Origin: Escherichia coli
Lineage (GTDB): Bacteria; Pseudomonadota; Gammaproteobacteria; Enterobacterales; Enterobacteriaceae
Length of the DNA: 64,000 bases
NCBI RefSeq assembly: GCF_013315695.1
Contig: NZ_CP054353.1
Strand: one strand, 5' to 3'
The translations under genes were made by a program, and so were the position numbers. Under the pieces are notes generated by a model that did not search any database, had not been told where the DNA came from, and saw nothing but the letters and a program-made list of their open reading frames with translations. Positions 9,516 through 38,426 of this stretch are shown here, in pieces (within the stretch, counting starts at the first letter, position 1; the number at the start of each line of letters is the position of its first letter).

Positions 9516-9641
9516 ATACTCTAAATAATTCGAGTTGCAGGAAGGCGATAAGAGAGTGAATCCCCAGGAGCTTACAGAAGTAAGTGACTGGGGTGAGCGA
9601 ACGCAGACGCAGCACATGCAACTTGAAGTATGACGAGTATA
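9516..9641. repeat. ERIC/IRU intergenic repeat, copy 1 (126 bp)
   Basis: Contains gtgaatccccaggagcttacagaagtaagtgactggggtgagcg; near-identical in inverted orientation to 25169-25293. Confidence 0.75.
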
Positions 9642-13016: not shown

Positions 13017-13910
13017 ATGAAACGCCCGGACTACAGAACATTACAGGCACTGGATGCGGTGATACGTGAACGAGGATTTGAACGCGCGGCACAAAAGCTG
13101 TGCATTACACAATCAGCCGTCTCACAGCGCATTAAGCAACTGGAAAATATGTTCGGGCAGCCGCTGTTGGTGCGTACCGTACCGCCGCGCCCGACAGAAC
13201 AAGGGCAAAAACTGCTGGCACTGCTACGCCAGGTGGAGTTGCTGGAAGAAGAGTGGCTGGGCGATGAACAAACCGGTTCGACTCCGCTGCTGCTTTCACT
13301 GGCGGTCAACGCCGACAGTCTGGCGACGTGGTTGCTTCCGGCGCTGGCTCCTGTGTTAGCTGATTCGCCTATCCGCCTCAACTTGCAGGTAGAAGATGAA
13401 ACCCGCACTCAGGAACGTCTGCGCCGCGGCGAAGTGGTCGGCGCGGTGAGTATTCAACATCAGGCGCTGCCGAGTTGCCTTGTCGATAAGCTCGGTGCGC
13501 TTGACTATCTGTTCGTCAGCTCAAAACCGTTTGCCGAAAAATATTTCCCTAACGGCGTAACGCGTTCGGCATTATTGAAAGCACCTGTGGTCGCCTTTGA
13601 CCATCTTGACGATATGCACCAGGCCTTTTTGCAGCAAAACTTCGATCTGCCCCCAGGCAGCGTACCGTGCCATATCGTTAATTCTTCAGAAGCGTTCGTA
13701 CAACTTGCTCGCCAGGGCACCACCTGCTGTATGATCCCGCACCTACAAATCGAGAAAGAACTGGCCAGCGGTGAACTGATTGACTTAACGCCGGGGCTAT
13801 TTCAACGCCGGATGCTCTACTGGCACCGCTTTGCTCCTGAAAGCCGCATGATGCGTAAAGTCACTGATGCGTTGCTCGATTATGGTCACAAAGTCCTTCG
13901 TCAGGATTAA
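13017..13910 (+). CDS. argP: LysR-family regulator ArgP (IciA), 297 aa
   Basis: Internal start [43 protein letters not shown]... Confidence 0.95.
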
Positions 13911-14113
13911 TCCATCAAATAATGCCTGATAGCACATATCAGGCGTTATCCTCACTTCTTTTTGTATTCCTTGAATCACATCACAAAATAGACAAATCTC
14001 AGGCGGCAAAAAACGACGTCTGAATGCATTTTTTTTGCTGGCGACAAACCCACGTAAAAAGCTCACCGTAAGCGCAAATACCCTCATTTTGATTGCGTTT
14101 TACGGAGCAAATA

Positions 14114-16258
14114 ATGTCTAACGTGCAGGAGTGGCAACAGCTTGCCAACAAGGAATTGAGCCGTCGGGAGAAAACTGTCGACTCGCTGGTTCAGCAAACC
14201 GCGGAAGGGATCGCCATCAAGCCGCTGTATACCGAAGCCGATCTCGATAATCTGGAGGTGACAGGTACCCTTCCTGGTTTGCCCCCCTACGTTCGTGGCC
14301 CGCGTGCCACTATGTATACCGCCCAACCGTGGACCATCCGTCAGTATGCTGGTTTTTCAACAGCAAAAGAGTCCAACGCTTTTTATCGCCGTAACCTAGC
14401 CGCCGGGCAAAAAGGTCTTTCCGTTGCGTTTGACCTTGCCACCCACCGAGGCTACGACTCCGATAACCCGCGCGTGGCGGGCGACGTCGGCAAAGCGGGC
14501 GTTGCTATCGACACCGTGGAAGATATGAAAGTCCTGTTCGACCAGATCCCGCTGGATAAAATGTCGGTTTCGATGACCATGAATGGCGCAGTACTACCAG
14601 TACTGGCGTTTTATATTGTCGCCGCAGAAGAGCAAGGTGTTACACCCGATAAACTGACCGGCACCATTCAAAACGATATCCTCAAAGAGTATCTTTGCCG
14701 CAACACCTATATTTACCCGCCAAAACCGTCAATGCGTATTATCGCAGACATCATCGCCTGGTGTTCCGGCAACATGCCGCGATTTAATACCATCAGTATC
14801 AGCGGTTACCATATGGGTGAAGCGGGTGCCAACTGCGTGCAGCAGGTAGCATTTACGCTCGCTGATGGGATTGAGTACATCAAAGCAGCAATCTCCGCCG
14901 GGCTGAAAATTGATGACTTCGCTCCTCGCCTGTCGTTCTTCTTCGGCATTGGCATGGATCTGTTTATGAACGTCGCCATGTTGCGTGCGGCACGTTATTT
15001 ATGGAGCGAAGCGGTCAGTGGATTTGGCGCACAGGATCCGAAATCACTGGCGCTGCGTACCCACTGCCAGACCTCAGGCTGGAGCCTGACTGAACAGGAT
15101 CCGTATAACAACGTTATCCGCACCACCATTGAAGCACTGGCTGCAACGCTGGGCGGTACTCAGTCACTGCATACCAACGCCTTTGATGAAGCGCTTGGTT
15201 TGCCTACCGATTTCTCAGCCCGCATTGCCCGCAATACCCAGATCATCATTCAGGAAGAATCAGAACTCTGCCGCACCGTCGATCCACTGGCCGGATCCTA
15301 TTACGTTGAATCGCTGACCGATCAAATCGTCAAACAAGCCAGAGCCATTATCCAACAGATCGACGAAGCCGGTGGCATGGCGAAAGCGATCGAAGCAGGT
15401 CTGCCAAAACGAATGATCGAAGAGGCCTCTGCGCGCGAACAGTCGCTGATCGACCAGGGCAAGCGTGTCATCGTTGGTGTCAACAAGTACAAACTGGATC
15501 ACGAAGACGAAACCGATGTACTTGAGATCGACAACGTGATGGTGCGTAACGAGCAGATTGCTTCACTGGAACGCATTCGCGCCACCCGTGATGATGCTGC
15601 CGTAACCGCCACGTTGAACGCCCTGACTCACGCCGCACAGCATAACGAAAACCTGCTGGCTGCCGCTGTTAATGCCGCTCGCGTTCGCGCAACGCTTGGT
15701 GAAATTTCCGATGCGCTGGAAGCGGCATTTGACCGTTATCTGGTGCCAAGCCAGTGTGTTACCGGCGTGATTGCGCAAAGCTATCATCAGTCTGAGAAAT
15801 CGGCCTCCGAGTTCGATGCCATTGTTGCGCAAACGGAGCTGTTCCTTGCCGACAATGGTCGTCGCCCGCGCATTCTGATCGCTAAAATGGGCCAGGATGG
15901 GCACGATCGCGGCGCGAAAGTGATCGCCAGCGCTTATTCCGATCTCGGTTTCGACGTAGATTTAAGCCCGATGTTCTCTACACCTGAAGAGATCGCCCGC
16001 CTGGCAGTAGAAAACGACGTTCACGTAGTGGGCGCATCTTCACTGGCTGCCGGTCATAAAACGCTGATCCCGGAACTGGTCGAAGCGCTGAAAAAATGGG
16101 GACGCGAAGATATCTGCGTGGTCGCGGGTGGCGTCATTCCGCCGCAGGATTACGCCTTCCTGCAGGAGCGCGGCGTGGCGGCGATTTATGGTCCAGGTAC
16201 GCCTATGCTCGACAGCGTGCGCGACGTACTGAATCTGATAAGCCAGCATCATGATTAA
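14114..16258 (+). CDS. scpA: Methylmalonyl-CoA mutase (714 aa)
   Basis: Start [21 protein letters not shown]...; B12-dependent mutase; first gene of sbm-argK-ygfG-ygfH cluster. Confidence 0.95.
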
Positions 16259-17246
16259 TGAAGCCACGCTGGCAGAAAGTATTCGCCGCTTACGTCAGGG
16301 TGAGCGTGCCACGCTCGCCCAAGCCATGACGCTGGTGGAAAGCCGTCACCCGCGTCATCAGGCGCTAAGTACGCAACTGCTTGATGCCATTATGCCGTTC
16401 TGTGGTAACGCCCTGCGACTGGGTGTTACCGGCACACCCGGCGCGGGGAAAAGTACCTTTCTTGAAGCCTTTGGCATGTTGTTGATTCGTGAGGGACTAA
16501 AGGTTGCGGTTATTGCGGTCGATCCCAGCAGCCCGGTCACTGGCGGTAGCATTCTCGGAGATAAAACCCGCATGAATGATCTGGCGCGTGCCGAGGCGGC
16601 GTTTATTCGCCCGGTACCCTCCTCCGGCCATCTGGGCGGTGCCAGTCAGCGAGCGCGGGAATTAATGCTGTTATGCGAAGCGGCGGGTTATGACGTAGTG
16701 ATTGTCGAAACGGTTGGCGTCGGGCAGTCAGAAACGGAAGTCGCCCGCATGGTGGACTGTTTTATCTCGTTGCAAATTGCCGGTGGCGGCGATGATCTGC
16801 AGGGCATTAAAAAGGGGCTAATGGAAGTGGCAGATCTGATCGTTATCAACAAAGACGATGGCGATAACCATACCAATGTCGCCATTGCCCGGCATATGTA
16901 CGAGAGTGCCCTGCATATTCTGCGACGTAAATACGACGAATGGCAGCCACGGGTTCTGACTTGTAGCGCACTGGAAAAACGTGGAATCGATGAGATCTGG
17001 CACGCCATCATCGACTTCAAAACCGCGCTAACTGCCAGTGGTCGATTACAACAAGTGCGGCAACAACAATCGGTGGAATGGCTGCGTAAACAAACCGAAG
17101 AAGAAGTACTGAATCACCTGTTCGCGAATGAAGATTTCGATCGCTATTACCGCCAGACGCTTTTAGCGGTCAAAAACAATACGCTCTCACCGCGCACCGG
17201 CCTGCGACAGCTCAGTGAATTTATCCAGACGCAATATTTTGATTAA
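16251..17246 (+). CDS. argK: MeaB-like GTPase (331 aa)
   Basis: P-loop GTPGAGKST; product [33 protein letters not shown]... Confidence 0.95.
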
Positions 17247-21952: not shown

Positions 21953-21961
21953 CAAATCGCT
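21953..21961. repeat. 9-bp target-site duplication (caaatcgct), left flank of IS1 copy 1
   Basis: Identical 9-mer at 22730-22738 immediately after the IS1 right end. Confidence 0.9.
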
Positions 21962-22016
21962 GGTGATGCTGCCAACTTACTGATTTAGTGTATGATGGTG
22001 TTTTTGAGGTGCTCCA

Positions 22017-22292
22017 GTGGCTTCTGTTTCTATCAGCTGTCCCTCCTGTTCAGCTACTGACGGGGTGGTGCGTAACGGCAAAAGCACCGCCGGACATCAG
22101 CGCTATCTCTGCTCTCACTGCCGTAAAACATGGCAACTGCAGTTCACTTACACCGCTTCTCAACCCGGTACGCACCAGAAAATCATTGATATGGCCATGA
22201 ATGGCGTTGGATGCCGGGCAACAGCCCGCATTATGGGCGTTGGCCTCAACACGATTTTACGTCACTTAAAAAACTCAGGCCGCAGTCGGTAA
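22017..22292 (+). CDS. insA: IS1 InsA (91 aa)
   Basis: GTG start; [43 protein letters not shown]... Confidence 0.95.
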
Positions 22293-22714
22293 CCTCGCGC
22301 ATACAGCCGGGCAGTGACGTCATCGTCTGCGCGGAAATGGACGAACAGTGGGGCTATGTCGGGGCTAAATCGCGCCAGCGCTGGCTGTTTTACGCGTATG
22401 ACAGGCTCCGGAAGACGGTTGTTGCGCACGTATTCGGTGAACGCACTATGGCGACGCTGGGGCGTCTTATGAGCCTGCTGTCACCCTTTGACGTGGTGAT
22501 ATGGATGACGGATGGCTGGCCGCTGTATGAATCCCGCCTGAAGGGAAAGCTGCACGTAATCAGCAAGCGATATACGCAGCGAATTGAGCGGCATAACCTG
22601 AATCTGAGGCAGCACCTGGCACGGCTGGGACGGAAGTCGCTGTCGTTCTCAAAATCGGTGGAGCTGCATGACAAAGTCATCGGGCATTATCTGAACATAA
22701 AACACTATCAATAA
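22211..22714 (+). CDS. insB: IS1 InsB reading frame (167 aa; expressed as InsAB fusion by -1 frameshift)
   Basis: Product ...[50 protein letters not shown]... Confidence 0.9.
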
Positions 22715-22729
22715 GTTGGAGTCATTACC

Positions 22730-22738
22730 CAAATCGCT
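22730..22738. repeat. 9-bp target-site duplication (caaatcgct), right flank of IS1 copy 1
   Basis: Matches 21953-21961. Confidence 0.9.
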
Positions 22739-22975
22739 GATAGCGCAAAGTAAGGCAATCATAATGTGGTACTGACGACGAATGCCCTGATTCATCACAA
22801 AAGCATTTTGTGGACCGAGCGGTAGGATCATAGCTGCGCCAAGCGCAAGACCTTGAAAGTAATAAGAAAACACGTTGGATATTCCGAATTAAGTATCTGA
22901 TGCAGAGACTATATCGCGGGATTGTTATTAGCGGAAATTGATAATATTAATTGGCAATCAGAAAAACTAATAAGA

Positions 22976-23000
22976 GAGAGGCCAGAGAGTATTATCTGGC
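22976..23000 (-). terminator. Putative terminator downstream of mscS
   Basis: Hairpin aggccagagagtattatctggcct near mscS stop, followed on the minus strand by a T-rich stretch. Confidence 0.4.
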
Positions 23001-23011
23001 CTCAGCGTTGA

Positions 23012-23872
<861 letters not shown>

Positions 23873-24010
23873 TCAATATTCCTTTTCAACTGACCCAAAA
23901 TGGAGAAATACACTCCGCCGCCTTATGACGGGCAGTCTGACAAGGGTAAACAATAAAGCATAATTTTGCCAAATAGATCACAGATTTCTCATCTGTATCA
24001 CCTTGCTTTT

Positions 24011-24040
24011 GGCGAAAAAAAGACCCGCAGAGCGGGCCTT
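24011..24040 (-). terminator. Intrinsic terminator of fbaA
   Basis: Hairpin gacccgcagagcgggcc preceded on plus strand by A7 run (U-run after hairpin on fbaA transcript). Confidence 0.55.
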
Positions 24041-24062
24041 GAGATAAGCAGAAAGGAATGGC

Positions 24063-25142
24063 TTACAGAACGTCGATCGCGTTCAGTTCCTGGAATGCTT
24101 TTTCCAGACGAGCGATCATAGAAGTCTGACCGGCACGCAGCCATACGCGCGGATCGTAGTATTTCTTGTTCGGCTGATCTTCGCCTTTCGGGTTACCCAG
24201 CTGACCCTGCAGGTAAGCTTCGTTCGCTTTGTAGTAGTTCAGAACGCCTTCCCAGGTTGCCCATTGGGTATCGGTATCGATGTTCATTTTCACTACGCCG
24301 TAGCTTACGGAGTCTTTGATTTCCTGAGCAGTAGAACCGGAACCACCGTGGAATACGAAGTTCAGGCTGTTGTGCGGCAGGTTGTGTTTCTTAGAAACAT
24401 ATTCCTGAGAATCACGCAGGATGGTCGGAGTCAGAACCACGTTACCCGGCTTGTAAACACCGTGTACGTTACCGAAGGACGCTGCGATGGTGAAACGTGG
24501 GCTGATTTTGCTCAGCTCGGTGTATGCGTAATCAACGTCTTCCGGCTGGGTGTACAGTGCAGAAGCGTCCATGTGGCTGTTGTCCACGCCGTCTTCTTCA
24601 CCACCGGTGCAACCCAGTTCGATTTCCAGAGTCATGCCGATTTTGGACATGCGCTCCAGGTATTTAGAGCAGATTTCGATGTTCTCTTGCAGAGATTCTT
24701 CAGACAGGTCGATCATGTGAGAAGAGAACAGCGGCTTGCCGGTAGCTGCGAAGTGTTTTTCACCCGCGTCCAGCAGACCGTCGATCCACGGCAGCAGTTT
24801 CTTCGCGCAGTGGTCGGTGTGCAGGATAACCGGAACACCATAATGTTCAGCCATCTGGTGAACGTGATGCGCACCAGAGATCGCGCCCAGGATAGCAGCA
24901 CCCTGCGGAACGTCAGATTTCACGCCTTTACCAGCGATAAAGGAAGCACCACCGTTGGAGAACTGAACGATAACCGGCGCTTTAACTTTAGCAGCGGTTT
25001 CCAGCACGGCGTTGATGGAGTCAGTACCGACGCAGTTTACTGCTGGCAGTGCGAAGTTGTTTTCTTTTGCTACCTGGAAAACTTTCTGTACGTCATCACC
25101 AGTGATTACGCCAGGTTTTACGAAATCAAAAATCTTAGACAT
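24063..25142 (-). CDS. fbaA: Fructose-bisphosphate aldolase class II (359 aa)
   Basis: Internal start MSKIFDFVKPGVITGDDVQKVFQVAKENNFALPAVNCVGT... Confidence 0.97.
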   Translation of the reverse strand: MSKIFDFVKPGVITGDDVQKVFQVAKENNFALPAVNCVGTDSINAVLETAAKVKAPVIVQFSNGGASFIAGKGVKSDVPQGAAILGAISGAHHVHQMAEHYGVPVILHTDHCAKKLLPWIDGLLDAGEKHFAATGKPLFSSHMIDLSEESLQENIEICSKYLERMSKIGMTLEIELGCTGGEEDGVDNSHMDASALYTQPEDVDYAYTELSKISPRFTIAASFGNVHGVYKPGNVVLTPTILRDSQEYVSKKHNLPHNSLNFVFHGGSGSTAQEIKDSVSYGVVKMNIDTDTQWATWEGVLNYYKANEAYLQGQLGNPKGEDQPNKKYYDPRVWLRAGQTSMIARLEKAFQELNAIDVL

Positions 25143-25168
25143 GTCTCTTGTCCTGTATCGTCGGGCCT

Positions 25169-25293
25169 TATACTCGTCATACTTCAAGTTGCATGTACTG
25201 CGTCTGCGTTCGCTCACCCCAGTCACTTACTTATGTAAGCTCATGGGATTCACTCTCTTGTCGCCTTCCTGCAACTCGAATTATTTAGAGTAT
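25169..25293. repeat. ERIC/IRU intergenic repeat, copy 2 (inverted relative to copy 1)
   Basis: cgctcaccccagtcacttacttatgtaagctcatgggattcac core; reverse complement aligns with 9516-9641 with a handful of mismatches. Confidence 0.75.
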
Positions 25294-25356
25294 GAAAAAG
25301 TGCGTGCTTTAAAAGCGCGCTGCAACAAGGGCAGGTTTCCCTGCCCTGTGATTTTT

Positions 25357-26520
25357 TTACTTCTTAGCGCGCTCTTCGAGCATCGCTACTGCAGGCAGTA
25401 CTTTACCTTCCACGAATTCGAGGAATGCACCGCCGCCAGTGGAGATGTAGGAGATTTTGTCAGCAATGCCGAACAGGTCGATTGCTGCCAGAGTGTCGCC
25501 GCCGCCAGCGATGGAGAACGCTTCGCTGTCTGCGATAGCGTTAGCCACGATTTCAGTACCTTTGCGGAAGTTCGGGAATTCGAACACGCCAACCGGACCG
25601 TTCCACAGAATGGTTTTCGCATTCTTCAGGATTTCAGCCAGTTCCTGAGCGGAAGCATCACCGATATCCAGGATCTGCTCGTCAGCTTTCACATCGTTAA
25701 CAGATTTCAGGGTAGCCGGTGCAGTTTCAGAGAACTCAGTTGCTACGCGAACATCAGACGGAACCGGAATGTTGCAGGTGGTCAGCAGACGTTTTGCTTC
25801 ATCAACCAGGTCAGCTTCGTACAGGGATTTACCCACATCGTGGCCTTGTGCCGCGATAAAGGTGTTAGCGATACCACCACCCACGATCAGCTGGTCAGCG
25901 ATTTTGGACAGGGAATCCAGAACGGTCAGTTTGGTAGATACTTTAGAACCACCAACGATAGCCACCATCGGGCGAGCAGGTTCTTTCAGTGCTTTACCCA
26001 GCGCGTCCAGTTCAGCTGCCAGCAGCGGGCCTGCGCACGCAACGTCAGCGAATTTACCGATACCGTGAGTAGAAGCCTGCGCGCGGTGAGCAGTACCGAA
26101 TGCGTCCATTACGAACACGTCACACAGTGCAGCGTATTTTTTGGACAGGGTTTCGTCGTCTTTCTTCTCGCCTTTGTTGAAGCGAACGTTTTCCAGAACA
26201 ACCAGTTCACCTTCAGCAACGTCAACGCCGTCGAGGTAATCTTTAACCAGACGAACCGGGTTAGACAGTTTGTCTTTCAGGTAGTTAACAACCGGCAGCA
26301 GAGAGAATTCTTCGTTGTACTCGCCTTCGGTAGGACGACCCAGGTGGGAAGTTACCATCACTTTTGCGCCTTGTTTCAGGGCCAGTTCGATGGTCGGCAG
26401 AGAAGCACGGATACGCGCATCGCTGGTTACTTTCCCGTCTTTTACTGGTACGTTCAGATCCGCACGGATAAATACACGTTTCCCAGCAAGATCCAGATCG
26501 GTCATCTTAATTACAGACAT
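25357..26520 (-). CDS. pgk: Phosphoglycerate kinase (387 aa)
   Basis: Internal start [37 protein letters not shown]... Confidence 0.97.
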
Positions 26521-26569
26521 GGTGAATCCTCTCGTTGATTCTAAAAGTTTTGCAGACGCTGCTTGCGTC

Positions 26570-27589
26570 TTACCTGAAAGCAACAGTAGCCATAGCTAAC
26601 GTCGTGTCGAGCATTCGGTTAGCAAAGCCCCATTCGTTATCGCACCAGACCAACGTTTTGATCAGGTGTGCGCCACTGACCCGGGTTTGGGTGCCATCGA
26701 CAATGGCACTGTGCGGATCGTGGTTAAAATCTACAGAGACCAACGGCAATTCCGTATAGTCAACTATACCATGAAATGCACCTTGTGCTGCTTTTTGCAG
26801 CAACAGGTTGACTTCATTGGCTTTTACAGGTTTCTTCACCGTCACGCTTAAATCGATTGCCGTCACATTTATGGTTGGCACACGTACCGCAATCGCTTCA
26901 AAGCGATCGTTAAATTGCGGAAAAAATCGTGTGATACCGGCGGCCAGTTTAGTATCGACCGGAATGATCGACTGGCTGGCTGCCCGGGTGCGACGCAGGT
27001 CAGGATGGTATGCATCAATAACCTGTTGATCGTGCATGGCGGAGTGAATTGTGGTCACAGTGCCAGACTCAATACCGTACGCATCATCTAACAATTTGAT
27101 GACGGGAATTATGCAATTCGTGGTACAGGAAGCGTTAGAAACGATGCGGTGTTCCGCACGAAGTTGATCCTGATTGACGCCGTAAACAACGGTCGCGTCG
27201 AGATCGTTACTGCCAGGATGTGAAAAGAGCACTTTTTTGGCCCCGGCGGCAATATGCGCTTCGCCATGCTCGCGGGAGCCATATACGCCGGTGCAGTCGA
27301 GGACTACATCAACGCCAAGTTCACGCCAGGGGAGCGATTGTAGTGAACGTTCATGCAATACACGGATGGCGTCATCACCAACAAAAAGTTGATCGCGTTC
27401 CTGTCGTACTTCCCATGCAAAACGGCCATGGCTGGTGTCATATTTCAACAAATGCGCCATGCCCGCAGCATCCGCCAGTTCGTTGATTGCCACCACGGTA
27501 ATTTCCGCCCGGCGTCCGGATTCATACAAAGCACGAACCACATTACGCCCGATGCGACCGAAGCCATTTATCGCTACGCGTACGGTCAT
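26570..27589 (-). CDS. epd: D-erythrose-4-phosphate dehydrogenase (339 aa)
   Basis: Internal start [43 protein letters not shown]... Confidence 0.95.
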
Positions 27590-27816
27590 AGATCTCCTGC
27601 AAGGTTTTCCCTGAGCAAATTTGCCAGACAGAGTAATCCAGCAAATCGTCCGGGGAAACCTTACCTGTCGCAAACTGCGACTGATTGGTTAATTGTCGAA
27701 CATTTAATCGACTGAAACGCTTCAGCTAGGATAAGCGAAACGTGGAATAAAAGGAATGATTGTCCAGTCAAAGAAGACAATTATCTGACTTACGTCACGT
27801 TTTCAGCCCCGCCCCT

Positions 27817-27832
27817 GTGGAATTTATTCCAC
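27817..27832. promoter_or_regulatory. Near-perfect 16-bp palindrome gtggaatttattccac (candidate operator) in the epd / island intergenic region
   Basis: Inverted repeat read directly; a related half-site cgtggaataaaa occurs about 75 bp upstream. Confidence 0.3.
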
Positions 27833-27960
27833 TTTGCAGAATCACGAATAAGCGTAGCAAAATCTTTTCGTTGTGCCGTCACAAACCCTGACTTATATCA
27901 GAATATGACTGATGCAGCGTCGATATTATCCGCAATACGTCCGAGTTTCGGAGTACTCCA

Positions 27961-28392
27961 ATGATGACATTGCCCTACCCATATTCTTCCTCCGCACGTT
28001 TTTACGCGCTGCGCCTGCTCCCCGGGCAGGAAGTTCTCTCCCAATTACGCGCCTTCGCGCAGCAACAACAACTTCACGCCGCGTGGATTGCAGGTTGTAC
28101 CGGCAGTCTGACTGACGTCGCCTTACACTATGCCGGGCAAGAAAACACGACCCTACTAAGCGGTAAGTTCGAAGTCATCGCATTGAACGGCACGCTGGAA
28201 CAGAGTGGTGAACATCTTCATCTCTGCGTTTCCGATCCACACGGCACGATGCTTGGCGGTCATATGATGCCCGGCTGTACCGTGCGGACCACGCTTGAAC
28301 TGGTGATCGGCTGCCTTGAGGAACTGGCGTTTAGCCGCCAGCCTTGCGCGCTTTCTGGTTACGACGAGTTGCATATTTCCCCCGTTAACTAA
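27961..28392 (+). CDS. Small DUF296 / PCC-domain-like protein (143 aa), first gene of accessory operon
   Basis: Product MMTLPYPYSSSARFYALRLLPGQEVL...HLHLCVSDPHGTMLGGHMMPGCTV...; RBS ggag 7 nt upstream; family assignment from recalled features only. Confidence 0.6.
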   Translation: MMTLPYPYSSSARFYALRLLPGQEVLSQLRAFAQQQQLHAAWIAGCTGSLTDVALHYAGQENTTLLSGKFEVIALNGTLEQSGEHLHLCVSDPHGTMLGGHMMPGCTVRTTLELVIGCLEELAFSRQPCALSGYDELHISPVN

Positions 28393-28414
28393 CTATTTTC
28401 AGAGAGGTTTTCTT

Positions 28415-28993
28415 ATGGCGCGTCGCCACTTTTCCAGTCAGGCGCTGGTGTTGATCGTTATATCTATCGCCATCAATATGATCGGCGGGCAACTGGCCAG
28501 CATGGTCAAATTACCTATATTTCTCGACTCCGTCGGCACACTTATTAGCGCAGTACTGCTTGGTCCGGTGATCGGGATGCTGACCGGCTTACTGACCAAT
28601 TTACTCTGGGGATTGCTGACCGACCCGATCGCCGCCGCATTTGCGCCCGTCGCGATGGTCATCGGCCTGGTCACCGGTTGGCTGGCGCGAGCGGGTTGGT
28701 TACGCACCCTGCCAAAAGTCGTTGTTAGCGGCGTGATTATTACGCTTGCGGTAACGGTCGTCGCTGTACCGCTGCGTACTGCGCTGTTCGGCGGTGTCAC
28801 CGGTAGCGGAGCCGATTTGTTCGTTGCCTGGATGCACTCTATGGGGCAAAACCTGGTGGAGTCGGTGGCGATTACGGTGATAGGCGCGAACCTGGTCGAT
28901 AAAATTCTCACGGCGGTGATTGTCTGGCTTTTACTGCGCCAGTTGCCGATTCGCACCACACGACATTTCCCGGCAATGGCTGCCGTGCGCTAA
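28415..28993 (+). CDS. ECF-type transporter substrate-capture (S) component, small multi-helix membrane protein (192 aa)
   Basis: Highly hydrophobic product MARRHFSSQALVLIVISIAINMIGGQLASMVKLPIFLDSVGTLISAVLLGP...; stop directly abuts the T-component start. Confidence 0.6.
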   Translation: MARRHFSSQALVLIVISIAINMIGGQLASMVKLPIFLDSVGTLISAVLLGPVIGMLTGLLTNLLWGLLTDPIAAAFAPVAMVIGLVTGWLARAGWLRTLPKVVVSGVIITLAVTVVAVPLRTALFGGVTGSGADLFVAWMHSMGQNLVESVAITVIGANLVDKILTAVIVWLLLRQLPIRTTRHFPAMAAVR

Positions 28994-29701
28994 ATGCATC
29001 CGTTTACATCCTTAACGCTGTGGACGCTGGCGGCCTGCACCACGCTTATCCTGCCCACACAGACAATACTGCCAGTCTATAGCGCGGCGACCTTTTTCTG
29101 CCTTATTGCGCTGAAGGCCACGCGGCGGCGGGCAAAATATGTTGTCTGGCTGATGTTCTCGCTGGGGGCTGGACTGTGGCTGGTACACGGTGGCTGGCTG
29201 ACAGAATGGCTAAGCGGCACGCCACGCTCGCCAGAACGGTGGACGCATGCTATTACGCTCTGGTTGCGGATTCTGGCGATTGTTTCAACCTCGCAGTTGT
29301 GGATGCAATTCGTCCCCGTGCAACGTTTTATCCGCGCTTTGTTTGCTTCTCGCCTGCCGCCGGGCGTCGCTTATCTGTTCGCCGGGCCGTTGTTGGTCGT
29401 TGAGCAGTTAAAACGGCAATTAGCGATTATTCATGAAGCGCAGCGCGCCCGCGGCGTACCGCTGGATGAGGGCTGGTATCAGCGTTTACGTGCGATGCCC
29501 GCGCTAATTATTCCGCTAACACACAATGCGCTAAACGATCTGGCTATCCGTGGTGCGGCGTTGGACATGCGGGCATTTCGGATCCACAACCGGCGCACTA
29601 CGTTATGGGCACCGCCTGACAGTAACCTGGAAAAAGTGGCACGTTACGCCATGATCTTGCTGATGCTGGCAGAATTCGGAGCGTGGATATGGTTACGTTA
29701 G
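28994..29701 (+). CDS. ECF transporter transmembrane (T) component, EcfT/CbiQ-like (235 aa)
   Basis: Membrane protein with Arg-containing coupling motifs (EAQRARGV, AIRGAALDMRAF); start codon immediately follows the upstream TAA. Confidence 0.65.
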   Translation: MHPFTSLTLWTLAACTTLILPTQTILPVYSAATFFCLIALKATRRRAKYVVWLMFSLGAGLWLVHGGWLTEWLSGTPRSPERWTHAITLWLRILAIVSTSQLWMQFVPVQRFIRALFASRLPPGVAYLFAGPLLVVEQLKRQLAIIHEAQRARGVPLDEGWYQRLRAMPALIIPLTHNALNDLAIRGAALDMRAFRIHNRRTTLWAPPDSNLEKVARYAMILLMLAEFGAWIWLR

Positions 29702-30366
29702 AACAGTTTAGCTATTGCCCGACACACTCAACGCATCCTCCGTTCTGTTATGACTTTCACTATGTCAAACCGGGGATAGTCGCCATCTTTGGTGACAACG
29801 GCAGTGGCAAAAGTACGCTGGCGCAACTGATGGCAGGCTGGTATCCGGACTTTCTGCCAGGAGAGATAACCGGCACGGGGACGCTTCTCGGTACGCCCAT
29901 TGGGCATATCCCGCTTAATGAACAATCCGCCACCATCCAGCTCGTTCAGCAATCGCCCTATTTGCAGCTCTCCGGCTGTACCTTTAGCGTGGAAGAAGAA
30001 GTTGCCTTTGGGCCAGAAAATCTGTGTCTTGCTGAAGAGGAGATTATGGCGCGGATTGATGCCGCCCTGACTCTGACCGAGTGCCAGCCGTTGCGCCATC
30101 GTCACCCGGCAACACTCTCCGGTGGAGAGACACAGCGTGTGGTCATCGCCTGCGCCATCGCGATGCAGCCAAAGCTCTTAATTCTTGATGAAGCCTTTAG
30201 CCGCCTGACGCCGCAGGCCTGCGAAATGCTGTTGCAGCGCTTACAACACTGGGCGCTTGAACGTGGTTCGCTGATTATTCTTTTTGAACGTCATCGTACA
30301 CCTTTCCTGAACTACTGCCAGCAAGCGTGGCAATTGCAAAACGGAGCGCTCCAGCCACTATGTTAA
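29683..30366 (+). CDS. ABC ATPase, EcfA-like (227 aa)
   Basis: Walker A GDNGSGKST, signature LSGGETQRV, Walker B LLILDEA. Confidence 0.85.
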   Translation: MDMVTLEQFSYCPTHSTHPPFCYDFHYVKPGIVAIFGDNGSGKSTLAQLMAGWYPDFLPGEITGTGTLLGTPIGHIPLNEQSATIQLVQQSPYLQLSGCTFSVEEEVAFGPENLCLAEEEIMARIDAALTLTECQPLRHRHPATLSGGETQRVVIACAIAMQPKLLILDEAFSRLTPQACEMLLQRLQHWALERGSLIILFERHRTPFLNYCQQAWQLQNGALQPLC

Positions 30367-31037
30367 CGTTAAATCAGATAACTTATCGCTGGCCTGACGC
30401 GGCAACGGATTGTCTTTGCGACATTTCTCTGCAACTCAAACAAGGTGAATGGTTGGCGCTGACCGGCGACAATGGCGCGGGAAAATCGACGCTGTTACGA
30501 GTAATGGCAGGTCTTCTTACGCCCACAGCCGGTACGGTTATGCTGCAACAACAGGCGATGAAAAACCTGAAAAACCGCCAGCGCGCGGCAAAGATTGGCG
30601 TACTGTTTCAGGAAGCGGAAAACCAGCTTTTTCACAGCACCGTCGCTGACGAGATCGCATTTGGTTTGAAACTGCAAAAATGCCCGGCGGATGAAATCAC
30701 TCAACGTACCAATGCTGCCCTGCAATGCTGTCAGTTAGCAGACACTGCCAGCGCGCATCCGCTGGATCTGCATAGTGCGCAGCGACGGATGGTCGCCGTC
30801 GCCTGCCTGGAAGCACTCTCTCCGCCGCTATTGCTGCTGGACGAGCCGAGTCGGGATTTTGACGAAAATTGGATGAGCGTGTTTGAAAGTTGGCTGGAAA
30901 AGTGCCGCCAGCGAGGCACGAGCGTCGTAGCAATCAGTCATGACGCCGCATTTACCCGGCGTCATTTCTCTCGTGTGGTGCGACTGGAAGATGGTGTAAT
31001 CAGGAACGTTAATCCATCAGACGATATTCACCCGTAG
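30360..31037 (+). CDS. Second ABC ATPase, EcfA-prime-like, with degenerate signature motif (225 aa)
   Basis: Walker A GDNGAGKST, Walker B LLLLDEP, H-loop SHD; LSGGQ replaced by LHSAQ; start overlaps upstream stop as ATGTTAA. Confidence 0.8.
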   Translation: MLTLNQITYRWPDAATDCLCDISLQLKQGEWLALTGDNGAGKSTLLRVMAGLLTPTAGTVMLQQQAMKNLKNRQRAAKIGVLFQEAENQLFHSTVADEIAFGLKLQKCPADEITQRTNAALQCCQLADTASAHPLDLHSAQRRMVAVACLEALSPPLLLLDEPSRDFDENWMSVFESWLEKCRQRGTSVVAISHDAAFTRRHFSRVVRLEDGVIRNVNPSDDIHP

Positions 31038-31722
31038 CGGTCATCATTAAGGTCAAATTTGCAGGCAGACTCTCTTCCAGCACCCGGCGAACATTCGGCC
31101 CGTCGGTACGGTCATAAAAGGCTTCTGCGTCTGCCAGCGATAACCCTCCCGCCAGCTTGCGCCCCACCAGACGCTCCCGCAACGCAGATGCGGGAGCTTT
31201 GATAAAGATCGAGAAATCACAAAATTGCGCAAGCTGGCGCCACTTCTCGTCGTCCAGCAACAACCAGTTTCCTTCGACGATGACGAGTGGTGCGGTAACG
31301 TGCAACGCATCTTCAACAGGATCATGCTTTTGTCGATCGTACTGCGGCCACGTACAATCCCCTTCCACCACCTGGCGCAGATTTTCCGCCAGTTTCGCAA
31401 CGTCAAATGTCTCTGGTGCGCCTTTGAAGGGGCGCAATTGATGCGCGTCCAGCCAGCTATTGTAATGGTGAAAACCATCCATCGGGAGCGTCTGAATAGC
31501 GGGCAGCTCCGGGTCTTGTTGCGCGAGATATTCCCAGAAGGTGGTTAGGGTAGATTTACCCGTCCCCGGCGGAGCGCAAAGAAAAACCACCGTACGCCGC
31601 TGCGGATTTACCGTCTGTAAGGCCGCCAGCATACGCAGCAACGGTTTATGCACGCGTTCTATCTCTTCATCATGGTACTGTGCCTGTATCTTCAGCCCAT
31701 TCACCGTTAATTCAATTTTCAC
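31009..31722 (-). CDS. yggC: P-loop nucleoside/nucleotide kinase family protein YggC (237 aa)
   Basis: Product with P-loop CAPPGTGKSTL; position between epd and yggD. Confidence 0.9.
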   Translation of the reverse strand: MKIELTVNGLKIQAQYHDEEIERVHKPLLRMLAALQTVNPQRRTVVFLCAPPGTGKSTLTTFWEYLAQQDPELPAIQTLPMDGFHHYNSWLDAHQLRPFKGAPETFDVAKLAENLRQVVEGDCTWPQYDRQKHDPVEDALHVTAPLVIVEGNWLLLDDEKWRQLAQFCDFSIFIKAPASALRERLVGRKLAGGLSLADAEAFYDRTDGPNVRRVLEESLPANLTLMMTATGEYRLMD

Positions 31723-32228
31723 GGCGTTAATTCCTTTAAGGTGGTCGTTACTGCCAGCGTCAGCGCCGTTTTGACCATCCCGCTAAAACGCGCCTCTGAC
31801 CAGACGGCGAAATCGGCGAACTTCATCGCTTTCAACGCGTCATAGAGCGTCGCATTGCGGGTTATGCTATTGACGTTGCTGATAAAATCCCAGGTCATAT
31901 CATCAGCAAATCCGGGCGTTTCATCCTGTTCGTTCAGGTAATGCCAGAACTGGGAAAAATGCGTGATATCGGCGTACAGCCATTTATCCATTTTCCCCAG
32001 CGCATAAATCAAACGCAGTGCAACATCAATATCGTCAAGCGGGCCGCTTTGGGCGAGTAACGGCTTCACTGCATATTCGACGATCTCTTCATCGTTATCG
32101 ACAAACAGCGACGGCAGAAACTGGCGTATCCCCTGGAGCAAAATAGAATGCGCAGTATTCATAAATGAAAATAAATTGTCCTGTGCATCCAGTTGCTCAA
32201 GCACATCATCTTCTGTCAGCGTCGCCAT
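31719..32228 (-). CDS. yggD: MtlR/FumE-family protein YggD (169 aa)
   Basis: ORF product MATLTEDDVLEQLDAQDNLFSFMNTAHSILLQGIRQF... Confidence 0.9.
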   Translation of the reverse strand: MATLTEDDVLEQLDAQDNLFSFMNTAHSILLQGIRQFLPSLFVDNDEEIVEYAVKPLLAQSGPLDDIDVALRLIYALGKMDKWLYADITHFSQFWHYLNEQDETPGFADDMTWDFISNVNSITRNATLYDALKAMKFADFAVWSEARFSGMVKTALTLAVTTTLKELTP

Positions 32229-32249
32229 TGGTCTTCCGATAGATCACCA

Positions 32250-33215
32250 TCAATGCAGGGAGTCTATTATATTACACGTTTGGTCCGCGCCGCCGATCAG
32301 TAATGTCTGCGTCCGCACCCCATTCGCCGTCTGTTGGATACCGTTCACCAACTCGCCGCCCGTCACGCCCGTAGCGCTAAAGAGGATATCGTTCCCCCTC
32401 ACCAGTTCATCGAGCGAGTACACACGGTTAACGTCAACGCCCATTGCCTTACAACGCTTGCGCTCCTGCTCTGCAATCTGCCGATTTTCCGTGTAATCCC
32501 CTTTAGCCTGACAAAAGTCAATCAGCTGGGCCTGCATATCCCCGCCTAATGCTTTAACGGCACAGGCAGAAATCACGCCTTCTGGCGCACCGCCGATGGT
32601 GTACATCACATCGTAAGGATTATCCTGCCAGCAGGTCAGCACGCTGGCGGCGACATCGCCATCCGGCAGAGCGAAAACCTTCACGCCCAGCTGTGTTGCT
32701 TCTTCAATCGCGGCACTCAGGCGCGGTTTATCCAGCGTAACCATGCGCAGCTTGTCCAGCGGTTTGCCTAACGCTTTCGCCACGTTGCGCAGGTTGTCCA
32801 CCAGGGGCAAAGACAGATCAATCGCGCCCGCCGCCAGCCGATTAACAACCAGTTTTTTCATATACATATCGGGAGCGTGTAGCAGGCTGCCTCGTGGGGC
32901 GAAGGCCATGACTGCCAGCGCATTGCTCTGTCCCATCGCCACCATCCGCGTACCTTCAATGGGATCAACCGCGATATCGACTTCTGGCCCATCGCCTTTG
33001 CCCACCTCTTCGCCAATCCACAGCATCGGCGCATGGTCAATCTCTCCCTCGCCGATAACCACTCGCCCACGAAAAGCGACGTCGTTTAATGCCTGGCGCA
33101 TCGCGGTGACCGCCAGGCCATCAATTTTATTTTTGTCGCCACATCCGATTTGCGGCCAGGCAGCCAACGCTGCCTGTTCCGTAACGCGAAATAATGGCCA
33201 CGCCAGGGACATCAT
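32250..33215 (-). CDS. yggF: Fructose-1,6-bisphosphatase class II, GlpX paralogue (321 aa)
   Basis: ORF product MMSLAWPLFRVTEQAALAAWPQIGCGDKNKIDGLAVTAMRQAL... Confidence 0.9.
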   Translation of the reverse strand: MMSLAWPLFRVTEQAALAAWPQIGCGDKNKIDGLAVTAMRQALNDVAFRGRVVIGEGEIDHAPMLWIGEEVGKGDGPEVDIAVDPIEGTRMVAMGQSNALAVMAFAPRGSLLHAPDMYMKKLVVNRLAAGAIDLSLPLVDNLRNVAKALGKPLDKLRMVTLDKPRLSAAIEEATQLGVKVFALPDGDVAASVLTCWQDNPYDVMYTIGGAPEGVISACAVKALGGDMQAQLIDFCQAKGDYTENRQIAEQERKRCKAMGVDVNRVYSLDELVRGNDILFSATGVTGGELVNGIQQTANGVRTQTLLIGGADQTCNIIDSLH

Positions 33216-34489
33216 TGCGCGGCCTCCCCGATATCAACGCCAAATTGCGCCAGCAGATATTTCTCGGCCTGCTCATTCCAGATGCCGTGCGTTTCCTCAA
33301 CCAGCCGCGCCAACTCTTTAAACAGCGGATCGGTTTTGCCTTTTTCGGCAAAATCGGCAATGGCAGTGAGCGGCATGGTCACGCCGTTATAAATGAGTTT
33401 TTTACCGCCTGGGATATCCGGCAGATTGAGCACGGTTTCTGGCACCGCATCAAGGCCACCAATATGGGTCACCATAAACGACGGCTGTAACTGTCCCGTG
33501 GCGCTAAGGGTAATCGCCTCTTTCATGTCGTCCGTTGAACCGCCGGATGTACCGACGACGTGCGTGCTGTTGTAATGGACGTTGTAGAAATTAAACGGCA
33601 CTTTGAAGTTTTTATCCGTCGGCCCGGCAAAGAAGTTCAGGCAGCCATCTTCCGCCAGTAATTCGTCAGCCATCTCAACGACAGCAGGCATCGCCGCATA
33701 AACAAAAATGTCATCGAACCCGGCATCTCCTGTCAGCGCCCGCAGCATCTGTACCGGATCGCTCATCCCTTTGGTATTCACATACACCAGCTCAATGCCT
33801 TTACTGGCCGCCAGTTCCACCGGCAGCAGCTTCTCTACCTGCGCCAGGCGTTTGTCGTCGATATCGACCACCACCACCCGCGACGGTTGTATGCCGCCGT
33901 TAATGGCGTAATCGATAGCGCCAATGCCCATTGGGCCAGCACACGCCAGCAGTGCAATATTGCCGCCAGGTTTGACGCCCATGCGATGCTCATAAACATA
34001 TTGCGTGGTGTGATAATTGGCATGATAAGCGCCAATAATGCAGCACATAGGCTCTGCCAGCGACGCCGCAGCAAAATAAGAGCCGTGATAGGGTAATACG
34101 CAGCTCAGGTTAATGGCGATCTCGGGAATAATCATATAGGTGGCGTTACCGCCAAAATATTCGTAGCTGTATCCCGCAGAATACCCGCTTGGTAGCCCCA
34201 TCGCCGGTTGCAATACAAAACGTTGGCCTTTTTTATATTTGTCGGTGAGATTTTTCCCCACTTCAACAATAATCCCGGCACATTCATGCCCGGTAATGAC
34301 CGGATGATTTTCTAAATCGTCGGGCACCCGTTTATGTTCGCTACCGAGTAACGCCGCTTTCCAGGTCGATAAACACACACTGTCAGAAATTACACTCACC
34401 AGCAGTTCATTATCGGTAATTTCTGGCAGTTCAAATTCGCGCAGACGGACATCCCGCTTGCCATAAATAGCAGCAACTTTGGTTTTCAT
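33212..34489 (-). CDS. yggP: Zn-dependent polyol/sugar-phosphate dehydrogenase YggP (425 aa)
   Basis: MDR-family product MKTKVAAIYGKRDVRLREFELPEITDNELLVSVISDSVCLSTWK... Confidence 0.9.
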   Translation of the reverse strand: MKTKVAAIYGKRDVRLREFELPEITDNELLVSVISDSVCLSTWKAALLGSEHKRVPDDLENHPVITGHECAGIIVEVGKNLTDKYKKGQRFVLQPAMGLPSGYSAGYSYEYFGGNATYMIIPEIAINLSCVLPYHGSYFAAASLAEPMCCIIGAYHANYHTTQYVYEHRMGVKPGGNIALLACAGPMGIGAIDYAINGGIQPSRVVVVDIDDKRLAQVEKLLPVELAASKGIELVYVNTKGMSDPVQMLRALTGDAGFDDIFVYAAMPAVVEMADELLAEDGCLNFFAGPTDKNFKVPFNFYNVHYNSTHVVGTSGGSTDDMKEAITLSATGQLQPSFMVTHIGGLDAVPETVLNLPDIPGGKKLIYNGVTMPLTAIADFAEKGKTDPLFKELARLVEETHGIWNEQAEKYLLAQFGVDIGEAAQ

Positions 34490-34503
34490 TTTTACCTCTG
34501 TAA

Positions 34504-35892
34504 TCAGTGTTTATGTTCGGCGGTTAATTGATTAAATAAAGTGTCGAGTTTTGGATCGCCAATATAGTTATTAATCAATATCAGTGATTTATCCGTCACA
34601 CGTTTCACGCGCCCTTCCAGACTGGCATGAGTAACGACGATATCCGCATCCGCAGGCACGTTTTCTATCGCGTAATGTTTTACTTCAATTGGCAGCCCCG
34701 CTTTTTCCAGACGTTTACGGAAGGTGGTTGCGCCCATCGCGCTGGAGCCCATCCCCGCATCGCAAACAAAGGCGATACGCTTAACCCGGCTTAACGAGAA
34801 TGCACCCTCTTGTTTCATCGCCTTAACCGCATTGGCTGACTGAGCAAACTCATCTTCGTTCTCCGTTTCCACCGTTTTTTCCATCTTCAGTATCAGCGAA
34901 GTGATAGCAAAGGACACCAGGGTACCTACCGTAACACCAGCAATTGTCGCCAGGAATGAGCCTTTCGGCGTCAGCGCCAGGTAAGCAAAGATAGACCCCG
35001 GACTTGGGCCAGCCACCAGACCACCGTCCAGTAAGTTAAACATCCAGGTGCCAGACATACCGCCCGCAATCATGGCAATAATGGTCAGCGGCTTCATCAG
35101 CACATATGGGAAATACAGTTCGTGGATCCCACCGAGGAAGTGAATAATCATCGCACCAGGTGCAGAGCGCTTACTCATCCCTTTACCAAACAGAGTGAAT
35201 GCCAGCAACAGTCCTAAGCCAGGCCCTGGATTGGATGCCACCATAAAGAAGATGGATTTGCCGTTAACTGATGCCTGTTGCATTCCCAGCGGATAATAGA
35301 CGCCCTGATCGATCGCATTATTAAGGAAAAGCACTTTCGCCGGTTCATTGATGACTGACAGCAGAGGCAGATAACCCGCATGTACCAGCGCCTCAATACA
35401 CTCTTTGACGAAAGTATTGGCAATTAACACCGCCGGGCCGATCACTTCAAAACCCAGCAGACAAAGGAGCATCCCCGCGATACCTAATGAGAAGTTATTG
35501 ATAACCATCTCAAAACCGGCAGGTATGCGTTTTTCCAGTGCCTTATCGACATATTTTATGACCAGCCCACCTAACGGTCCCATAATCATTGAACCAAGGA
35601 ACATCGGGATTTCTGCGCCGACGATTACACCAATTGACCCTATTCCGCCCATGACTGCGCCGCGTTTACCGCCGACTAAATGGCCACCGGTAGAACCAAT
35701 CATCACGGGCAATAAATAGGTAATCATCGGGCCGACAATTTTGGCGAAATGTTCGTTAGGCAGCCAACCGGTGGGAATAAATAACGCTGTAATAAAACCC
35801 CAGGCAATAAAAGCACCAATATTGGGGATGACCATTGCAGTCAAAAAGCCCCCAAAAGCCTGGACCTTTGCACGAGCAGACTTGTTTTCCAT
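34504..35892 (-). CDS. cmtA: PTS mannitol-family EIICB component (462 aa)
   Basis: ORF product MENKSARAKVQAFGGFLTAMVIPNIGAFIAWGFITALFIPTGW... Confidence 0.95.
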   Translation of the reverse strand: MENKSARAKVQAFGGFLTAMVIPNIGAFIAWGFITALFIPTGWLPNEHFAKIVGPMITYLLPVMIGSTGGHLVGGKRGAVMGGIGSIGVIVGAEIPMFLGSMIMGPLGGLVIKYVDKALEKRIPAGFEMVINNFSLGIAGMLLCLLGFEVIGPAVLIANTFVKECIEALVHAGYLPLLSVINEPAKVLFLNNAIDQGVYYPLGMQQASVNGKSIFFMVASNPGPGLGLLLAFTLFGKGMSKRSAPGAMIIHFLGGIHELYFPYVLMKPLTIIAMIAGGMSGTWMFNLLDGGLVAGPSPGSIFAYLALTPKGSFLATIAGVTVGTLVSFAITSLILKMEKTVETENEDEFAQSANAVKAMKQEGAFSLSRVKRIAFVCDAGMGSSAMGATTFRKRLEKAGLPIEVKHYAIENVPADADIVVTHASLEGRVKRVTDKSLILINNYIGDPKLDTLFNQLTAEHKH

Positions 35893-36243
35893 AATATTAT
35901 CCTGTAGAGGAGAGAGTAATTATCCGCGGCTGATAATGTCCGCTAATTGTTTTTCTGATGATGCTGTTAAGAGTTGTTCGAGTATTTCTTCTTCGCACAG
36001 TAATTCACTTAACGCCTGAATAGCGCCAATGTGCGAATCGGCATCGGCAGCAGAGAGTCCGATGAGTAATTTAATTGGTTCGTCATTCCCCTGAAAATAA
36101 ACACCTTGTTCAAGTAATGTCAAAGACATCCCGGTTTTAAGCGCCCCACATTCCGGTCGCGCATGAGGCATTGCCACGCCTGGTGCGAGAATATAATAAG
36201 GGCCATTGTTAATGGTGGAATCTTTAATTGCCTGAATGTAATT

Positions 36244-36252
36244 CTCGCTGAT
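36244..36252. repeat. 9-bp target-site duplication (ctcgctgat), left flank of IS1 copy 2
   Basis: Identical 9-mer at 37021-37029. Confidence 0.9.
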
Positions 36253-36307
36253 GGTGATGCTGCCAACTTACTGATTTAGTGTATGATGGTGTTTTTGAGG
36301 TGCTCCA

Positions 36308-36583
36308 GTGGCTTCTGTTTCTATCAGCTGTCCCTCCTGTTCAGCTACTGACGGGGTGGTGCGTAACGGCAAAAGCACCGCCGGACATCAGCGCTATCTC
36401 TGCTCTCACTGCCGTAAAACATGGCAACTGCAGTTCACTTACACCGCTTCTCAACCCGGTACGCACCAGAAAATCATTGATATGGCCATGAATGGCGTTG
36501 GATGCCGGGCAACAGCCCGCATTATGGGCGTTGGCCTCAACACGATTTTACGTCACTTAAAAAACTCAGGCCGCAGTCGGTAA
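36308..36583 (+). CDS. insA: IS1 InsA (91 aa)
   Basis: Translation identical to the 22017-22292 product. Confidence 0.95.
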
Positions 36584-37005
36584 CCTCGCGCATACAGCCG
36601 GGCAGTGACGTCATCGTCTGCGCGGAAATGGACGAACAGTGGGGCTATGTCGGGGCTAAATCGCGCCAGCGCTGGCTGTTTTACGCGTATGACAGGCTCC
36701 GGAAGACGGTTGTTGCGCACGTATTCGGTGAACGCACTATGGCGACGCTGGGGCGTCTTATGAGCCTGCTGTCACCCTTTGACGTGGTGATATGGATGAC
36801 GGATGGCTGGCCGCTGTATGAATCCCGCCTGAAGGGAAAGCTGCACGTAATCAGCAAGCGATATACGCAGCGAATTGAGCGGCATAACCTGAATCTGAGG
36901 CAGCACCTGGCACGGCTGGGACGGAAGTCGCTGTCGTTCTCAAAATCGGTGGAGCTGCATGACAAAGTCATCGGGCATTATCTGAACATAAAACACTATC
37001 AATAA
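36502..37005 (+). CDS. insB: IS1 InsB reading frame (167 aa)
   Basis: Translation identical to the 22211-22714 product. Confidence 0.9.
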
Positions 37006-37020
37006 GTTGGAGTCATTACC

Positions 37021-37029
37021 CTCGCTGAT
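37021..37029. repeat. 9-bp target-site duplication (ctcgctgat), right flank of IS1 copy 2
   Basis: Matches 36244-36252. Confidence 0.9.
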
Positions 37030-37140
37030 ATAGTTTTTATCCAGCAATGATACCATCGAGAAATCGATAGCTTCCTGCCAATCTTTTGCTGAATGTATAA
37101 CTGAGATTGATGATTTTGGAAAATAATCACTAAGCCGCAT

Positions 37141-37517: not shown

Positions 37518-38426
37518 ATGAAAGCACCTGTTTCATTAACCTCATTTCGCCCACAAAAATCTCTTGCTATCGCCATTGGCGTGCTTGCCGTGGTTGTGCT
37601 GCCATTTCTCTCGTATTACACCGTTAATGAAGGTGAACGCGGCATTTTGCTGCGCTACGGAAAAATCGTAAAAGTTGCCGAGCCGGGTCTGGGTTTTAAG
37701 ATCCCGTTTATGGAAAGCGTGGAGAAAATTTCCACGCGTAATCAGGCTGTGGTCTATCAGGGATTACAGGCCTACAGCCGCGACCAGCAACCGGCACAAA
37801 TGACAGTATCAGTCAGCTTCCACATTAAACCTTCAGAAGCAGGCGCGGTTTATACCACCTACAACACCATTGAAGCATTAAAAGATCGTCTGATTGTCCG
37901 TCAGTTGCCAACTCAACTGGAGAACGTTTTCGGCCAATATACCGCCATCAGCGCTGTACAGGATCGTACAAAACTGGTTCAGGATCTGCAAAATGCCATG
38001 CGCAAAGCCGTTGTTGGGCCAGTGGTAATTGACGGGGTCCAGATTGAAAATATTGATTTTTCTGACGCTTATGAAAAGTCGATTGAAGACCGAATGAAAG
38101 CAGAAGTCGCCATTGCCACGCGTAAGCAAAATCTGGAAACAGAGAAAATCCAGGCGCAAATAGCGGTAACTCAGGCCCAGGCAGAAGCAGACAGTAAACT
38201 GGCGGCAGCTAAAGCAGAAGCGGAAACTATTCGCGTAAGAGGCGCGGCAGAGGCTGAAACTATTCGTTTAAAAAGTGCGGCTGAAGCAGAAGCGATCCGC
38301 CTGCGCGGTGAAGCTCTGCGGGATAATCCCGGACTTGTAGCCCTCACCACTGCCGAACGTTGGGACGGTAAACTGCCCGATACCATGATCCCCGGCAGCA
38401 CAGTTCCGTTTATCTCTACTAAGTAA
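37518..38426 (+). CDS. SPFH/band-7 (HflC-like) membrane protein with C-terminal Ala/Glu-rich repeat region (302 aa)
   Basis: N-terminal TM helix then YTVNEGERGILLRYGKIVKVAEPGLGFKIPFMESVEKISTRNQ, paralleling the HflC N-terminal SPFH signature. Confidence 0.8.
   Translation: MKAPVSLTSFRPQKSLAIAIGVLAVVVLPFLSYYTVNEGERGILLRYGKIVKVAEPGLGFKIPFMESVEKISTRNQAVVYQGLQAYSRDQQPAQMTVSVSFHIKPSEAGAVYTTYNTIEALKDRLIVRQLPTQLENVFGQYTAISAVQDRTKLVQDLQNAMRKAVVGPVVIDGVQIENIDFSDAYEKSIEDRMKAEVAIATRKQNLETEKIQAQIAVTQAQAEADSKLAAAKAEAETIRVRGAAEAETIRLKSAAEAEAIRLRGEALRDNPGLVALTTAERWDGKLPDTMIPGSTVPFISTK
38214..38312 (+). repeat. Three imperfect tandem 33-nt repeats inside the SPFH gene
   Basis: Units encode AEAETIRVRGA / AEAETIRLKSA / AEAEAIRLRGE. 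Confidence 0.7.

Follow-up and report, generated by a model that had tools for sequence, protein, structure and literature searches.

What is the 786-bp segment at positions 36244–37029 of the 64,000-nucleotide stretch of DNA analysed here (hereafter 'the window', an ordinary Escherichia coli chromosomal segment extending from gcvT to rdgB), how did it come to lie within cmtB, and what does its presence mean for the phosphotransferase system (PTS) to which this gene belongs? We hold with high confidence that an intact insertion sequence of the IS1A type entered cmtB at codons 38–40 by simple transposition and split the gene, that functional enzyme IIA (EIIA) would consequently be missing and downstream transcription probably lowered, and that the event is recent and restricted to one clone.

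The segment consists exactly of a left target site duplication (TSD) copy of 9 bp, an IS1 of 768 bp, and a right TSD copy of 9 bp. The element itself (36253–37020, plus strand) is complete and of the IS1A type, and it ends in 23-bp terminal inverted repeats that match each other at 18 of 23 positions: the left one (IRL; GGTGATGCTGCCAACTTACTGAT) at 36253–36275 and the right one (IRR; ending in ATCAATAAGTTGGAGTCATTACC) at 36998–37020. Between them, and likewise on the plus strand, lie insA (36308–36583; 91 aa, with Zn_ribbon_InsA and HTH_Tnp_IS1 domains), the insB' reading frame (36502–37005; a full-length match, 1–131 of 131, to DDE_Tnp_IS1), and the A6C motif (AAAAAAC; 36559–36565), at which a programmed −1 frameshift would yield the 232-aa InsAB' transposase. 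All three domains exceed their Pfam gathering scores, and the fused InsAB' passes the NCBIfam equivalog for IS1, NF033558, with 245 bits (cut-off 100). Length, inverted repeats, frameshifted insA/insB', scores against curated models, and a duplication in the 8–9-bp range all place the copy in the IS1 family, and none of its coding or end features is damaged. The IS1A of K-12 MG1655 (NC_000913.3, 19796–20563), which occupies a different chromosomal location, shares the inverted repeats, insA, the A6C frameshift site, insB', and the length of 768 bp, and is identical to the window copy at 767 of 768 positions; the single difference is at position 444, where G in the window replaces T in MG1655 and InsB' has Arg instead of Ser.

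The initial annotation had assigned this IS1 a 9-bp duplication of its own, ctcgctgat, and the two copies, at 36244–36252 and 37021–37029, are indeed perfect. The window contains three copies of the 9-mer CTCGCTGAT, where 0.59 would be expected, two of them adjoining the IS1 ends exactly, and by our own arithmetic a 9/9 match at both ends would arise by chance with a probability of about 4^-9 = 4e-6. The duplication is the product of IS1 transposition, a staggered cut in the target having been filled in. Read on the minus strand, the left copy is ATC AGC GAG, which corresponds to cmtB nucleotides 112–120, codons 38–40 (Ile-Ser-Glu). The gene, whose ATG is at 37140, also lies on the minus strand and is now present as a 5' fragment (37021–37140; nucleotides 1–120, codons 1–40) and a 3' fragment (35920–36252; nucleotides 112–444, including the duplicated codons 38–40), so that the annotated split after codon 40 is exact, and deleting IS1 together with one TSD copy in silico restores an uninterrupted open reading frame (ORF) of 147 aa.

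The restored product identifies the target as the stand-alone EIIA component of the so-called cryptic PTS of the mannitol family. It matches PTS_EIIA_2 (PF00359) at 5.9e-30 and the CmtB equivalog NF007358 at 323.3 bits (cut-off 192), and it is identical at 145 of 147 positions (3e-92) to the K-12 CmtB of PDB 2OQ3 ('mannitol-specific cryptic phosphotransferase enzyme IIA'), which has the same length of 147 aa; at residue 9 the restored ORF has K where the structure has E, at residue 91 it has Q where the structure has P, and the window gene, unlike that of the structure, is interrupted. Its assignment as CmtB of the EIIA-2 type thus draws on the model match (of the restored ORF only), on a histidine signature (NNGPYYILAPGVAMPHA, residues 52–68), and on the adjacent EIICB gene cmtA, which is intact (34504–35892, minus strand; 462 aa, PTS_EIIC and PTS_IIB) and lies directly downstream of cmtB. 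Within the signature, which was located with the PROSITE EIIA-2 pattern, the histidine predicted to be phosphorylated is His67.

Neither of the fragments that IS1 left behind resembles a complete EIIA. The 5' piece continues into the element as a hybrid ORF of 66 aa (36940–37140, minus strand), comprising CmtB residues 1–40 and 26 residues encoded by the IRR end of IS1 before a stop codon; this product contains neither the EIIA phosphorylation motif nor His67, and it scores 75 bits against NF007358. The 3' piece holds the His67 motif, scores 175.6 bits—likewise below the cut-off of 192—and has its first in-frame start at GTG (Val63), with none earlier; it would thus be left without the promoter and start of cmtB. 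With His67 encoded beyond the break, a working EIIA is not expected from either fragment, and loss of cmtB function is the reading that we infer. The earlier proposal that the system is inactivated at the EIIA step is therefore reasonable as far as EIIA itself is concerned, and its wording is probably too narrow, because an effect on cmtA and the genes beyond it is likely.

The alternative that fares best against this loss of function, although we think it very unlikely, is that the system still works, either through an 85-aa C-terminal fragment initiated at GTG (Val63; 35920–36177) or because an EIIA of another mannitol- or fructose-family PTS substitutes for CmtB. Trans-complementation between separated mannitol enzyme II domains is known, CmtA might receive its phosphate in trans from the EIIA domain of a different mannitol-family PTS, and the 85-aa ORF retains His67 and accounts for the 175.6 bits obtained with the CmtB model. 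This fragment, however, misses 62 of the 147 residues that make up one compact domain and does not reach the model cut-off, neither a promoter nor a ribosome-binding site was identified for it, and cross-talk of another EIIA to CmtA would be hypothetical.

The gene cmtB is the first in the string cmtB-cmtA-yggP and so forth, and IS1 classically exerts strong polarity whichever way it is inserted, so that more than the EIIA step is probably affected. The element now separates the cmtB promoter from cmtA, yggP (425 aa, intact), and the genes further downstream; by analogy with classical IS1 polarity, transcription from that promoter would probably terminate inside IS1 and expression of these genes would be lowered. 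A consensus-like promoter within the cmtB 3' fragment (36123–36094, minus strand; 10/12) could in principle still drive cmtA, but promoter-like sites in this region are no more numerous than in shuffled sequence.

The reverse effect, in which the insertion would be regulatory rather than simply inactivating and an outward −35 box in IRL would switch on an otherwise silent cmtA-yggP-glpX(yggF)-fumE string, is slightly less probable again than a system that still functions. IS1 does create fusion promoters elsewhere, with Prentki 1986 among the examples listed in a table of PMC9330008, and IRL read outward does contain TTGGCA, 8 bp from its tip. Against this, the only −10 candidate at a 17-bp spacer is AATTAC (3/6, without T at position 6), the promoter scan reported no promoter at the IRL/cmtB junction, and without EIIA, CmtA would have no partner of its own to phosphorylate it. 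An outward hybrid promoter at IRL was accordingly rejected, its −35 box being without an acceptable −10 and the scan being negative at the junction.

Inactivation of cmtB, with probable polarity on the genes behind it, may have little bearing on phenotype. Since the main mannitol PTS, mtlA, is encoded outside the window, we predict no mannitol-negative phenotype. In the literature searched, no substrate or phenotype has been demonstrated for cmt, which appears there in table-level mentions only ('mannitol-specific', 'cryptic'), and nothing specific to cmtB and IS1 was found there beyond general reviews of insertion sequence promoters. Metabolic predictions made for this strain from gene content should nevertheless treat cmtB, and probably also cmtA-yggP, as non-functional.

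The IS1 in cmtB has a companion in the window at 21962–22729 (plus strand), which splits argO, the gene of an arginine exporter, and is flanked by a 9-bp TSD, caaatcgct (21953–21961 and 22730–22738), that differs from the one in cmtB. The two elements had been described as identical and in the same orientation, and they agree at 768 of 768 positions, both on the plus strand; their identity runs only 1 bp past the element on each side. Recombination between the two copies can be ruled out because each retains its own matched TSD, and on the evidence of these ends both are simple independent insertions. Their right flanks (22730–22741 and 37021–37032) share the 9-mer TCGCTGATA, at positions that differ by 3 bp when measured from the end of the element; this may reflect chance or a target preference of IS1.

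We next consider how far the insertion extends beyond this strain. Among 5,426 complete E. coli genomes, cmtB is well conserved: 5,400 carry the gene, 5,372 have it at near full length, and disrupted copies are rare. The cmtB::IS1 junctions of the window recur in only two of the 5,426, AF3 (NZ_OZ547117.1; blood culture, UK) and MSB1_4I (NZ_LR898874.1; rectal swab, Australia), and the argO::IS1 junction is likewise found in these two only. AF3 and MSB1_4I are also the closest relatives of the window in this set, with 2–5 substitutions in ~33 kb. Their cmtB::IS1 alleles have the same junctions, TSD, and orientation as that of the window, and their RefSeq annotations show cmtB as an interrupted pseudogene beside an 'IS1-like element IS1A family transposase'. 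The exact allele is therefore already known, being present and annotated in public genomes.

The initial annotation had also suggested a comparison with strains that carry an intact cmtB, and the next-closest genomes, VR50 and M15, provide one: both encode a CmtB of 147 aa, and their empty site differs from the restored site of the window by 2–3 mismatches in 2,724 bp, none of which is at the junction. From the intact gene in VR50 and M15 and the rarity of its disruption, it follows that the insertion is a recent, derived event limited to a small clone comprising the window strain, AF3, and MSB1_4I. In practical terms, the cmtB::IS1 and argO::IS1 junctions, found in just two of the 5,426 complete genomes, can serve as a clone-specific marker; IS1 routinely knocks out dispensable genes in E. 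coli, and the cmtB case is an ordinary one that offers little beyond strain bookkeeping.

Small differences set the three genomes of the clone apart. The IS1 in cmtB carries one private single-nucleotide polymorphism (SNP) in each of the two relatives, C677T in AF3 and C244T in MSB1_4I (extracted-locus positions 16354–17121 in both). The density of these C-to-T SNPs is 10–20-fold above that of the flanks (2–5 SNPs per 33 kb), which points to gene conversion within the large set of IS1 copies or to polishing errors in repeated sequence, and the window copy looks like the ancestral version. Additionally, a further IS1, inverted, sits between yggP and cmtA in AF3 (TSD atcagtgtt; extracted-locus positions 13836–14603) but in neither the window nor MSB1_4I, and MSB1_4I has an internal stop in fumE (extracted-locus positions 11820–12329), a gene that is intact in the window and identical there to that of AF3. 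Another lineage-specific pseudogene in the vicinity is dagR, which carries a frameshift in VR50 and M15 (extracted-locus positions 13044–15841) but is annotated as intact in AF3 and MSB1_4I.

The weakest of the alternatives, that IS1 was misplaced into cmtB during repeat resolution and that the real gene is intact, is exceedingly improbable: the chromosomes of AF3 and MSB1_4I contain at least 40 IS1 matches each, which makes repeat resolution error-prone, and the one private SNP per cmtB copy in these genomes is perhaps polishing noise, but a perfect 9-bp duplication is not a product of mis-assembly, the window runs without a break through both IS1 copies, each with its own TSD, and the recurrence of the junctions in the complete genomes of AF3 (UK) and MSB1_4I (Australia), which were sequenced independently, together with that duplication makes an assembly artefact very unlikely.

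A genuine, recent transposition into cmtB raises the further question of whether this gene attracts IS1. At least six other independent IS1 insertions lie inside cmtB in unrelated strains (MS 21-1, FXCREC043, 28Eco12, isolate 131, ZF31/ZF34, and 2017.17.01CC), all in the same orientation and each with an 8–9-bp TSD; their positions are nucleotides ~76–84, 311–319, 322–330, ~93–100, 92–100, and 140–147, and the IS1 variants at these six sites show 96.5–99.7% identity. Same-orientation insertions within the 444 bp of cmtB amount to nine genomes at seven sites, against ~2.6 expected under a rough uniform distribution (own arithmetic). Queries with IS1 junctions returned 18 genomes for cmtB and seven for an argO-centred control of the same geometry; a synthetic control that joined the cmtA flanks to IS1 returned 21, a figure confounded because any IS1 within ~1.25 kb was joined, so that its hit set overlaps that of cmtB. 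We rejected the idea of cmtB as a notable IS1 hot spot because the enrichment is mild, only ~3-fold, and can be explained by the low GC content of the gene (42%, against 52% for the window) and by its dispensability. Several further IS1 insertions sit, in other strains, in the AT-rich region upstream of cmtB.

In the lineage as a whole, IS1 appears to be active, given the number of IS1 matches per chromosome and the third element gained by AF3. A broader interpretation would see in cmtB::IS1 a trace of an IS1 burst still under way in a VR50-related clone associated with humans and would have it bracket, together with argO::IS1, a Tn9-like unit of ~13.5 kb that could be amplified, deleted, or mobilised; we consider this unlikely, albeit less so than any of the alternatives weighed above, and if true it would represent an early stage of Shigella-like genome remodelling driven by insertion sequences.

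The segment in question (22730–36252, ~13.5 kb) is indeed bracketed by two identical direct IS1 copies in a composite arrangement like that of Tn9, and it contains mscS, fbaA, pgk, epd, ECF transporter genes, a yggC-like kinase gene, fumE, glpX/yggF, yggP, and cmtA. Such a direct pair provides a substrate on which the fbaA-pgk segment could be deleted or amplified; the intact TSDs show that neither has happened to 22730–36252.

Two neighbouring features complete the description of the region. Between cmtB and tkt, and divergent from cmtB, lies a gene for a 302-aa SPFH/Band 7 protein of the prohibitin family (37518–38426), towards which read-out from IS1 through IRR points; it is absent from this position in some E. 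coli (e.g. AR_0114 and ZF34), where tkt follows directly. Elsewhere in the window, two ERIC/IRU elements in opposite orientation, at 9516–9641 (upstream of rpiA) and about 25150–25270 (between fbaA and pgk), explain a 79-nt inverted repeat found in the window; both contain an exact match to the ERIC2 primer sequence.
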